Below are positions 1-32,806 of a DNA stretch of 32,806 nt, piece after piece. This DNA comes from a virus, in the IMG/VR virus record IMGVR_UViG_3300045988_044216, positions 1-32,806 of that record; one strand, 5' to 3'. A program made the position numbers and the translations under genes. Each line of letters opens with the position of its first letter. Within the stretch, counting starts at the first letter, position 1. The notes under the pieces were generated by a model. The model had not been told where the DNA came from. It was given only the letters and a program-made list of their open reading frames with translations, and did no database searches.

Positions 1-366
1 AACGAAGTAACAACGGCAGTAGCCGATACCGAGAACGAAGTAACAACGGCAGTAGTGGAGGAACCAACTACGCCTGTAGAACTTAACACACAGGAAGAGA
101 AGATAGACGCGTATTTCAAATACACAGGTCTTAAACTCGATACCAATTGCCACATGGATATGGAATACCTAAATTTGTGGTATGTAGAAAAGTACTTGAC
201 AGGTAAAGTGTACAAGTGGGCTATGAAACCCGGTGCACGTATCGTTCACTATGCCGACGGCGTGATTTACAAGTCAGCAAACATGACTGACGAAATCGCT
301 GAAAGACTGATGAAAGAAAATCCTGCCTACGCAGAACAGTTTGTTAACATTTTAGAAAAGAAATAG
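1..366 (+). CDS. 3' part of a wrap-around gene (ATG at 32724 once the window is circularised). Small hypothetical protein with N-terminal ENEVTTAVA tandem repeats, directly upstream of the portal gene.
   Basis: Frame 1 is open from nt 1 (NEVTTAVADTENEVTTAVVEEPTT...) to the TAG stop at 364-366. ATG 32724 falls in frame after removing the 50-nt terminal duplicate. The track ORF 55..366 starts at an internal GTG. Confidence 0.6.
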   Translation, partial: NEVTTAVADTENEVTTAVVEEPTTPVELNTQEEKIDAYFKYTGLKLDTNCHMDMEYLNLWYVEKYLTGKVYKWAMKPGARIVHYADGVIYKSANMTDEIAERLMKENPAYAEQFVNILEKK

Positions 367-17738: not shown

Positions 17739-17759
17739 AGAATAACTAAAAAAAAAAAT

Positions 17760-18011
17760 ATGAAGACTATTAAAGATTTAACAATCAAGATGACTTATAG
17801 GGTTGGGCTTGGTAATATAGAAGTTCCTGATGAGGTATATAATGCTTTAGCAGAATGTTACGATAGAGGTGGAGATGTCCCCATGCCTGACGAGTGCAGT
17901 ATAACAGGACAGCCCGAACTTGCAGAAGCCGCTGAATGGTTGATTGACAACATTCGGCAAGATGACGCTATGGATTGGGAATTTGAAATTGAGGATTTTG
18001 AAGAAGAATAA
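17760..18011 (+). CDS. Small acidic protein (83 aa)
   Basis: ORF preceded by an A11 run (17748-17758). C-terminus DDAMDWEFEIEDFEEE. Rich in Asp and Glu. Confidence 0.55.
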   Translation: MKTIKDLTIKMTYRVGLGNIEVPDEVYNALAECYDRGGDVPMPDECSITGQPELAEAAEWLIDNIRQDDAMDWEFEIEDFEEE

Positions 18012-30930: not shown

Positions 30931-31461
30931 ATGGCAAAAAATTGTTTAAATAAACTTGGTACTAATGTAACTATGTCATGTAGCATGCCTATTAATGGCG
31001 TGAAAAACATCTATCTGATGCACGTCGAAGACGTTACGGTTTCGCTATCATCTGTTGGGTCGTGGACTGCCGTGAATTTCGCTACTGGAGCTAAAAGTTA
31101 TAAAGTCGAAGGGTATAAGCAAAACATTCAAGTAACCACAGCTATTAGAAGTTTAGACGCTTCTAATAAATTAGACATATCTGTCATGTTCAAGCTACCG
31201 TCCTCGGCCAAAGGTGCTGATTTTAATATTGTTGCTCCCGTTCTGACCCGAAAATTTTATGTACTTGTGGAGAATAATGATTTAACATACTTTGTAGCTG
31301 GGGCAACCTGCCCCTTAGAATGTTCGGGCTTAGACTGGGACAGCAATGCTAACGGACAGATGATAACATGTACCTTAACCGCACCCGAGGGGTCTGCGGG
31401 TAACTACTTTACAATTATAACACCAGAGGCTCGTAATACAATAATCTCAAAAGCATCTTAA
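30931..31461 (+). CDS. Structural protein, paralog 1 of 3 (176 aa; candidate major tail/tube or decoration protein)
   Basis: Shares with paralog 2 an N-terminal Cys context (MAKNCLNKL vs MACISKL), GAKSYKVE vs GAKAYKID, and a C-terminal block TYFVAGATCPLEC vs TFRVYGLYYGLSS. Confidence 0.65.
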   Translation: MAKNCLNKLGTNVTMSCSMPINGVKNIYLMHVEDVTVSLSSVGSWTAVNFATGAKSYKVEGYKQNIQVTTAIRSLDASNKLDISVMFKLPSSAKGADFNIVAPVLTRKFYVLVENNDLTYFVAGATCPLECSGLDWDSNANGQMITCTLTAPEGSAGNYFTIITPEARNTIISKAS

Positions 31462-31463
31462 AT

Positions 31464-32006
31464 ATGGCATGTATATCAAAATTATCAGCCGGGTTCGCAT
31501 ATGATTGCGACACTGGCTCAACAGGAATAGAAAATGCATTTATCGTCAACAAAGAGGATATTGTATCATTTACGGTTGACCCTACAGCAACAGTTATTGT
31601 CAACGCGGTTACATTAGCAGCAGGAGCAAAAGCCTATAAGATAGATACACCTAAAAGAACTTTAGTAGTTACGGAAAGCCTAAAAACAAATGAGGGCGCG
31701 CCTAACGCTTTGAGTTTTTCAGCAGCTATTACACTTACAGCGGTAAATTCTTATGTTTTTCGTATGAATGTTTTACAGTCATTACCTAATGGGTCTTATG
31801 TATTATTCACAAAAGAAGCCAGTAACACGTTCAGAGTGTACGGGTTATATTACGGATTGTCATCTACTGCCTACGACCGTAATACGCATGATAACGGAAA
31901 TTGGACTACCGTAACATTAGCCACACCAGAACAGGTTATCGGTGAAGACAGTTTGCAGGTTCAACAAAGTACGTATAACGCGTTGTATGATGCAGCAGTT
32001 TACTAA
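31464..32006 (+). CDS. Structural protein, paralog 2 of 3 (180 aa)
   Basis: See paralog 1. Starts 3 nt after the stop of paralog 1. Confidence 0.65.
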   Translation: MACISKLSAGFAYDCDTGSTGIENAFIVNKEDIVSFTVDPTATVIVNAVTLAAGAKAYKIDTPKRTLVVTESLKTNEGAPNALSFSAAITLTAVNSYVFRMNVLQSLPNGSYVLFTKEASNTFRVYGLYYGLSSTAYDRNTHDNGNWTTVTLATPEQVIGEDSLQVQQSTYNALYDAAVY

Positions 32007-32028: not shown

Positions 32029-32589
32029 ATGGCATGTATTAAATATGTAAGTGGAGATAGACGGATACCTTGCGGTGTACCAAACCCAGGTCCTTTGAAT
32101 TCCCCAAAAGGTGCTAAAGTCATTAATGAAGCACAAATACTGAGTTATTCCATAGTAGGCAATTATGCAACGATAACGCGGAATACAGGCGCGGTCGCTG
32201 CCGCAGACTTGGAAACTGCAAATAACTCATTGGTGGTTAATGTAGCTCTGAAAGGTGGCGAGATGTATCCGCAACTTTGGGATGTGTCTATAGAGTTTTC
32301 CTTTTTTTATGGGAGCCCGGTATCTGATCATGTAGGCGCGGCTGAAGGCTCGGGCGCAAATTCCCGTTGTATTTTTGCTGTAGACCACGGAAACGGTCAA
32401 TATCGCGTATATGGTCTTGGTAACCCGTTAGATTGCTTATCCTGTGAGGGAGCAAGTACCGGAAACGGATACATACGAACAACGTTCGGTGTAGAAGACT
32501 GGCAAACGGGTACTACTATCTATGCGCTTGATAAAGCTTCTTATGATGCTCTATCAACAGTAGCAGGGGGGGGTGACGCCGAAACCTGA
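32029..32589 (+). CDS. Structural protein, paralog 3 of 3 (186 aa)
   Basis: MACIKYV N-terminus, and QYRVYGLGNPLDC aligns with the FRVYGLYYGL block of paralog 2. It is the only gene here with an SD-like AAAGGAGA upstream. Ends just after a G8 tract. Confidence 0.65.
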   Translation: MACIKYVSGDRRIPCGVPNPGPLNSPKGAKVINEAQILSYSIVGNYATITRNTGAVAAADLETANNSLVVNVALKGGEMYPQLWDVSIEFSFFYGSPVSDHVGAAEGSGANSRCIFAVDHGNGQYRVYGLGNPLDCLSCEGASTGNGYIRTTFGVEDWQTGTTIYALDKASYDALSTVAGGGDAET

Positions 32590-32701
32590 TCCAGATACAC
32601 CATCTGGTGGTGGTTCAACCCATAAAGAATGCGACGGGTCAGGGATTTTATCAGATGGGACGAAGTGCCCCGGCTGCATAATGTGCGACCCATTAGGTTA
32701 A
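32564..32701 (+). other. +1-frame open extension encoding a Cys-rich ~44-aa peptide (possible frameshift product or a GTG-started mini-ORF from 32573)
   Basis: The +1 frame opens right after TAG 32561-63 and runs to TAA 32699-701. It translates as GGVTPKPDPDTPSGGGSTHKECDGSGILSDGTKCPGCIMCDPLG. The only in-frame ATG is codon 32681-32683, six codons before the stop, so no ATG could start this peptide. Confidence 0.45.
32566..32573 (+). repeat. G8 homopolymer
   Basis: Eight consecutive G residues, counted directly. They lie in the 23-nt window where the 0 frame and the +1 frame are both open. Confidence 0.95.
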
Positions 32702-32723: not shown

Positions 32724-32806
32724 ATGGCAACAGAGAAATCAACGGCAGTAGCCGAGAACGAAGTAACAACGGCAGTAGCCGATACCGAGAACGAAGTAAC
32801 AACGGC
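32724..32806 (+). CDS. 5' part of the wrap-around repeat-containing gene (continues at nt 1)
   Basis: ATG 32724, translating as MATEKSTAVAENEVTTAVADTENEVTTA... The frame is continuous with nt 1-366 after collapsing the 50-nt duplicate. Confidence 0.6.
   Translation, partial: MATEKSTAVAENEVTTAVADTENEVTT
32757..32806. repeat. Terminal 50-nt duplicate of nt 1-50 (circular closure signature)
   Basis: Base-by-base identity of nt 32757-32806 with nt 1-50. Confidence 0.95.

Follow-up and report, generated by a model that had tools for sequence, protein, structure and literature searches.

The DNA studied here raises the question of why a run of eight G residues lies at the 3' end of a gene for a structural protein, exactly where a second, cysteine-rich reading frame becomes accessible. 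The original prediction was that a +1 shift at this run, or the loss of one G, would append the cysteine-rich tail to the third of three paralogous proteins. We consider it fairly probable, from comparison with related sequences, that the run is a slipped-strand poly-G contingency locus which switches an accessory C-terminal module, while the body of the protein is always made.

The window, i.e., the whole stretch of 32,806 nt that was analyzed, is a complete phage genome. Its first and last 50 nt are identical (nt 1-50 and 32757-32806), and this terminal overlap shows that the genome is circularly closed. Its DNA is 67-72% identical to that of the approximately 34-kb Bacteroides uniformis phages EMB1/2, BU730P1 and C2_18_80S2P, and cultured relatives among the B. 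uniformis phages are siphoviruses (PMC9584325). Upstream of the block of three paralogues are a tape-measure-like protein, a protein of 328 aa and one of 314 aa, the last of which has a homologue annotated as PBSX XkdG in a related phage; a small repeat-containing protein and the portal lie downstream. The genome ends fall within a gene whose product contains peptides repeated in tandem (TAVAENEVTT / TAVADTENEVTT), and the copy number of these repeats differs among aligned relatives. The features at and around the junction are the following:

30931..31461 and 31464..32006, plus strand: the two upstream paralogues, given for context (ORFs and pairwise comparison)
32029..32589, plus strand: body ORF in its off-state form, 186 aa, ending ...STVAGGGDAET* (ORF and translation)
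32561..32563, plus strand: TAG that closes the tail frame upstream (sequence)
32566..32573, plus strand: G8 homopolymer at the body/tail junction, the proposed hypermutable switch (sequence, tract in relatives)
32573..32626, plus strand: Pro/Gly-rich linker in the +1 frame, VTPKPDPDTPSGGGSTHK (translation, relatives)
32587..32589, plus strand: TGA that closes the off-state product (off frame "a"), five codons past the tract (sequence)
32627..32701, plus strand: Cys-rich tail core ECDGSGILSDGTKCPGCIMCDPLG with four Cys, and the TAA stop at 32699-701 (+1 frame, codon-level selection)
32726..32806, continuing at 1..366 of the circular genome, plus strand: next gene (ORF across the genome ends)

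The positions of the G8 run, of the ORF, of the stops and of the open +1 frame, as given in the original prediction, all hold when the sequence is read again. The +1 frame is open from 32564 to the TAA at 32699-701 and reads QGGVTPKPDPDTPSGGGSTHKECDGSGILSDGTKCPGCIMCDPLG. Since the TAG at 32561-63 closes this frame, the tail is reachable only through the tract, and G8 lies within the only 23 nt (32564-32586) where both frames are open together. The 3' flank GTGAC[AG]CCG is conserved and encodes VTP in the on frame, and GDTE(T) or G in the off frames. In the second off frame, a TGA at 32574-32576 follows straight after the G run (GGG-TGA-C), and both off frames stop 0 to 5 codons past the tract. 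When one G is removed in silico the tail is fused to the body, as had been proposed, although the product has 223 aa and not about 224. Its expected junction peptide is …STVAGGVTPK… (…STVAGGVTPKPDPDTPSGGGSTHK). The spacer between the tail stop and the next gene is 24 nt long and highly conserved.

No other run of G or C in the 32.8-kb window is as long as G8. As a first-order Markov model of the window predicts 0.17 G runs of at least 8, G8 alone is only mildly unusual. The longest homopolymer of any base is an intergenic A11 run (17748-17758) directly upstream of an ATG at 17760, which could be a second length-variable expression tract or a mere A-rich leader of Bacteroidetes type. A T7 run is also found inside the body gene (32302-32308; codons TCC TTT TTT TAT, SFFY).

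Whether the +1 segment is a coding sequence can be answered from its conservation. The tail core has 24 residues with the Cys spacing C-x14-C-x2-C-x2-C, including CxGxG and CPGC motifs, and ends with DPLG. The selection test was limited to the 11 lineages found through the body, which avoids ascertainment bias; loci found by a degenerate DNA pattern of the tail were excluded, being biased towards the conserved peptide. The core peptide is identical in 10 of these 11 lineages, and the four Cys are invariant across all sampled lineages. Over the 24 core codons (ECDGSG...DPLG), the variable columns number 2, 1 and 17 at codon positions 1, 2 and 3, i.e., 17 of the 20 variable columns are third positions. 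In the tail frame the pN/pS ratio is as low as 0.016; the two alternative frames have values of 4.0 and 8.8, and the body has 0.30. At the codon level, the tail is shown to be under strong purifying selection and to be more constrained than the body, even in genomes where it is out of frame. The linker differs in both length and sequence between relatives.

In-frame fusions of body and tail are found in several relatives (P0003, P0004, P0006, P0008, P0121, P0149 and P0158). When the fused product was searched against 5.8 billion proteins, P0003, P0004, P0006 and P0008 (223-227 aa) were matched with 100% query coverage. The window's own 90%-identity cluster includes the 224-aa in-frame member P0121, and the DNA of this member (L056) has the same flanks as the window with G7 in place of G8. 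Judged by these fusions and by codon-level selection, the tail is a genuine coding sequence meant for fusion to the body, and this part of the original prediction stands. Comparison with related phages, which had been suggested as a check, gives all the anticipated outcomes: the tail is in frame, in either shifted frame, or absent, the last in cultured relatives. Because it is conserved at the protein level, the prediction cannot be set aside on the grounds of non-conservation.

On a different view, the open frame would be a small gene of its own, with 42 aa and a GTG start at 32573, or else a remnant in decay that has no link to the body in this genome; we regard this as very improbable. In a public third-party annotation of a related phage MAG, the equivalent ORF of 40 aa, beginning at the GTG behind the tract, does stand alone as a hypothetical protein (P0146 = DAG54054.1, beside P0144 = DAG54055.1), and a GTG follows straight after the tract in most lineages. 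However, at least 8 distinct protein forms have this sequence joined to the body in one continuous frame, the 17-residue Pro/Gly linker suits a tether and not a peptide N-terminus, and one lineage (L037) has ACG instead of GTG after the tract and still retains the tail. A pseudogene or decaying remnant is ruled out by the very low pN/pS.

The tail module is confined to this protein family in an exhaustive HMMER scan of 1.84 billion cluster representatives. No family was found for the fused product in Pfam at E up to 1, the tail had no match among PDB sequences at E up to 10, and tblastn of the 42-aa tail against cultured phage records gave chance matches only. Both tract and tail are absent from the cultured B. 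uniformis and Phocaeicola phage relatives, and the module is therefore dispensable for making virions.

The relation between the frames of body and tail was compared across relatives. At the same junction, the tract ranges from 7 to 14 G (G7, G8, G9, G10, G11, G13 and G14 were seen in DNA) and the tail occurs in all three frames relative to the body. These are comparisons of consensus sequences between assemblies, and a short-read consensus at tracts of 11-14 G can err by one. The tract lengths and the state of the tail are distributed as follows:

L045, L047 and L056: G7, in frame
L052: G8, in frame
L035 and L057-59: G13, in frame
The window, L039-41, L042-44 and L046: G8, off, ending GDxET*
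L036 and L055: G14, off, ending GDTE*
L034: G9, off, TGA straight after the run
L054: G10, off, TGA straight after the run
L037: G11, off

A rule that 3n+1 G residues place the tail in frame does not hold generally, as L052 is in frame with G8 because its preceding GAG codon supplies a G. Counted as distinct protein forms of the clade, 8 are on, 39 are off, divided 20 to 19 between the two off frames, and 5 are of other kinds. The endings found behind an identical body (...LLVDVPAS, one 90% cluster) imply 10, 11, 12, 13 and 14 G, of which two are on and three are off. The closest comparison is between L058 (G13, on) and L036 (G14, off), which share 99.97% identity across 6,685 nt and are separated by a single mismatch and a single gap. 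As their tracts differ by one G, the tract changes about as fast as the whole 6.7 kb.

Some of the contigs also differ elsewhere. In L057 (1906-2979), paralogues one and two are called as one ORF of 357 aa, and the near-identical L058 and L059 have two genes there, of 175 and 180 aa. Contigs with the same body (P0002) differ at a second homopolymer inside the tail, ...ACCCAAAAA(A)GAATG, with A6 in L042 and L043 and A5 in L044. With A6 the Cys core would need a second frame correction, and this may be either a slippage-prone site or an assembly error. In L053 (P0010), two tandem copies of the linker module, each with the junction motif (GGGTGACGCCGAAACCTGATCC), are found approximately 80-170 nt past the GIEDWQ anchor; the first junction (G7) is in frame, and the second copy restores GGG-TGA, which puts a stop before the Cys core.

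An error in sequencing or assembly, with a true G7 (or G10), an artefactual extra G and a single 223-aa gene, had been raised as an explanation from the start. Homopolymers are error-prone, the close relative L056 has the in-frame G7 form, and the calls of 11-14 G in other contigs may be unreliable. On the other hand, G8 is repeated in three other assemblies from different assemblers (L039-L041), possibly made from the same or overlapping reads, and it is short enough for an accurate short-read consensus. Moreover, several independent lineages and samples (L034, L042-44 and L046) are likewise off with 8-9 G, and a range of 7-14 far exceeds plus or minus one. We therefore find a hidden longer gene very unlikely.

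The original prediction placed a programmed +1 frameshift first. As a fixed recoding signal, of the SPP1 gp17.1* type, this is rejected, since the relation between the frames differs among relatives with 7-14 G. The slipped-strand on/off switch, which had been offered as the alternative, fits best, with both tract length and frame varying among relatives.

A less rigid form of recoding has to be weighed against DNA-level switching. Here the tract would be fairly stable, and RNA polymerase stutter or a slip of the P-site tRNA-Gly would make the tail from off genomes. The GGG-UGA stop would give a pause, and a minority of the subunits in each virion would bear the tail, as in SPP1 gp17.1* and T7 10B. 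Purifying selection acts on the tail although most consensus genomes are off, which agrees with such recoding, as does the persistence of some tract lengths. G13 is retained in three contigs approximately 1.2% apart, and G8-off is common to three diverged lineages, i.e., those of the window, L042 and L046, the last two with bodies of 71-79% protein identity to the window's. Slippage on a homopolymer could also serve any phase in either direction, is compatible with mixed frames, and could act simultaneously with DNA-level switching. However, the frame relation is unconserved and a sizeable minority of forms are simply in frame, unlike dedicated frameshift sites. No significant stimulatory RNA structure was found downstream of the tract when 32574-32700 was folded and compared with shuffles (MFE -35.2 kcal/mol against a shuffle mean of -34.3, z = -0.23). 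The documented bacterial sites of transcriptional slippage consist for the most part of some 9 or more A or T residues in a row, and slippage is harder with a G:C hybrid, whereas this tract is G, 8-14 long. Lastly, the near-identical genomes L058 and L036 differ in the length of the tract in their DNA, and DNA slippage therefore does occur. In sum, we hold recoding on a stable tract to be unlikely. The persistent tract lengths could mean that the tract is less unstable than we propose, or alternatively that slippage of the ribosome or of RNA polymerase allows off genomes to express the tail.

The two processes might also be combined, with the junction G run being both a frame-agnostic recoding site and a mutable site, i.e., a rheostat of tail-decoration density. 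Slippage would then supply a small tuned fraction of four-Cys subunits at any tract length, and changes in DNA length would set this fraction from a few percent to 100%. The orphan Cys module might then help the phage adhere to phase-variable surface structures of Bacteroides, or allow escape from a defence system that senses tail-tube proteins. This reading we consider quite unlikely.

For a switch at the DNA level, it is relevant that the G run appears to be actively maintained. GGG is the rarest Gly codon in the genome (12.5% of Gly codons), and GGG-GGG is used in only 1 of its 43 Gly-Gly pairs. The second Gly stretch of the linker has mixed GGT/GGC/GGA codons, and yet in almost all lineages with the tail the junction consists of G alone. 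Codon usage shows that the homopolymer is kept against codon preference. In one group of contigs (L048-51), the tract is interrupted at the DNA level (GGGAGGGGTTGAC) and locked off, and further interrupted tracts are implied by the protein forms AGKG*, AGEGDTET and AGESDTET. The only amino-acid substitutions seen in the tail, S to P and G to D, are found in the interrupted L048-51 lineage, which fits relaxed constraint on its tail sequence after loss of switching.

In more distant clades, too, the G run at the junction leads to three kinds of ending (GGVTP*, GGGDPVTP* and GGG*). Among them, P0020, P0092, P0054 and P0063 have short Cys-less tails that still end with [DN]PLG, and this motif is therefore older than the Cys-rich insert. 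The terminal [DN]PLG may be a docking element. In L005 and L008, a G8 run, a TGA and a PRNPIN[PL]LG remnant in the third frame were observed approximately 80-130 nt past the GVEDWQ anchor.

Taken together, the junction has several features of a contingency locus. It is a homopolymer within a reading frame whose length changes shift the frame; its length is polymorphic by a number that is not a multiple of three, e.g., G7 and G8 within the window's 90% cluster; it changes far faster than its surroundings, judged indirectly from L058 and L036, compared between assemblies; and the repeat is held by selection and not by codon preference. The comparative evidence is to our judgment unusually clear, as far as a comparison between assemblies can be.

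In the mechanism that we propose, G8 would be a hypermutable homopolymer placed exactly at the junction of the body with an accessory module, and this module would consist of a flexible Pro/Gly linker and the 24-residue four-cysteine knuckle ending in DPLG. Polymerase slippage during replication of the phage DNA would gain or lose G residues within the population. One phase of the tract would fuse the module to the body (on), and the other two would end the protein 0-5 codons past the tract (off), in each case with the body intact. The genome in the window would be in the off phase, with G8 giving the protein of 186 aa, and a change to G7 would give the fusion. Since slippage would move genomes between the on and off phases, a phage population would be a mix of virions with and without the appendage, a form of bet-hedging.

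What such a switch would act on can be approached through the body protein. It is the third of three adjacent paralogues of approximately 180 aa, and the paralogy claimed in the original prediction proves true, though distant (22-25% identity, with pairwise E-values of 3e-13, 6e-7 and 5e-4). The two upstream paralogues have neither tract nor tail. Structure prediction of the fused product, also suggested at the outset, was done with AlphaFold2 on P0003, a homologue that is naturally full-length. This succeeded for the body, a well-modelled beta-sandwich, and failed to give a confident tail (mean pLDDT 76.6 for the model, 50-69 in the tail). Against the PDB, the model gives weak matches to tail tube, terminator and neck proteins of siphophages, with TM scores of only 0.3-0.4; the best are the Sf11 tail (E 2.8e-3, prob 0.97) and the R4C tail tube. 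In a viral structure library, the top match (E 8e-10) is among siphovirus proteins that are uncharacterised, and several entries named "major tail protein" are matched with E approximately 1e-3 to 1e-2. Pfam and PHROGs gave no informative family for either body or tail. These weak but consistent structural matches hint at a tail-tube-like virion protein. The four invariant Cys suggest a small metal-binding knuckle, which, by analogy with the decoration domains found dispensably at the C-terminus of tail-tube proteins, is probably displayed on the surface of the phage tail via the flexible linker. We infer that the module mediates some surface interaction or evasion.

To our knowledge, there are very few phages in which experiments have demonstrated phase variation driven by repeats, i.e., Campylobacter phages and recently T-even phages, and our literature searches returned no description of it in gut phages of the Bacteroides type. 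In the present case, a poly-G tract is retained at a single, precise domain junction throughout a family of abundant gut siphoviruses. The majority of the assembled genomes are off, and yet purifying selection acts more strongly on the module than on the body. The locus would thus be a testable case of viral bet-hedging in the gut, where hosts phase-vary their own surfaces. It also matters for annotation, as pipelines split or truncate the gene (in the public record DAG54054.1, the tail is called as a separate 40-aa protein) and consensus assemblies conceal a population mixture at the tract.

Programmed frameshifts are known to add C-terminal decoration domains to some subunits of a structural protein, as in SPP1 gp17.1/gp17.1*, T7 10A/10B and tail and capsid proteins with Ig-like domains. 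Our locus resembles SPP1 gp17.1* and T7 10B in the logic of its products, a tail-tube or capsid protein of which one form has a dispensable C-terminal module on a linker and the other lacks it. However, those systems use a fixed, conserved and ribosomal shift site, while here the frame differs among close relatives and is in many of them simply continuous.

A closer parallel is found in Campylobacter phages, for which Sorensen and colleagues are said to have described, in 2021, that the length of a poly-G tract in a virion gene shifts the frame and gives phenotypically mixed phage populations. The poly-G tract, its place in a virion gene and the frame shifts caused by its length are shared with our locus. 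The differences are that we describe an uncultured gut siphovirus related to B. uniformis phages; that the tract lies at a domain junction at the 3' end, where a small C-terminal appendage would be toggled with the body left intact; and that the target is tail-tube-like, whereas no receptor-binding role is known for it. Two later papers (PMC12823448 and PMC10877375) mention the hypermutable polyG tracts of these Campylobacter phages (Fletchervirus) and cite the work (Sorensen et al. 2021, Cell Rep 35:109214).

In T2, T4 and other phages, homopolymers of at least 6 frequently gain or lose a base by polymerase slippage and act as reversible switches, and the A9 tract of T2 agt is an example of a phage contingency locus (Gomez, Barrick & Waters 2025 preprint, PMC12633550). 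As in those loci, a homopolymer inside a gene would serve here as a length-variable switch. Theirs are mostly A runs that inactivate the whole gene, as shown by experiment, whereas ours has 7-14 G at a conserved junction and is deduced from comparative metagenomics. Contingency loci with poly-G or poly-C are also found in bacteria such as Campylobacter, Neisseria and Haemophilus (PMC6625227, PMC10877375). These share with our proposal slipped-strand mispairing in a coding homopolymer, one on phase among three, and a tract that runs against codon preference. They differ in that they concern cellular genes for surface structures, while the present locus belongs to a virus of Bacteroidales-type hosts, which themselves usually phase-vary by DNA inversion and not by repeats.
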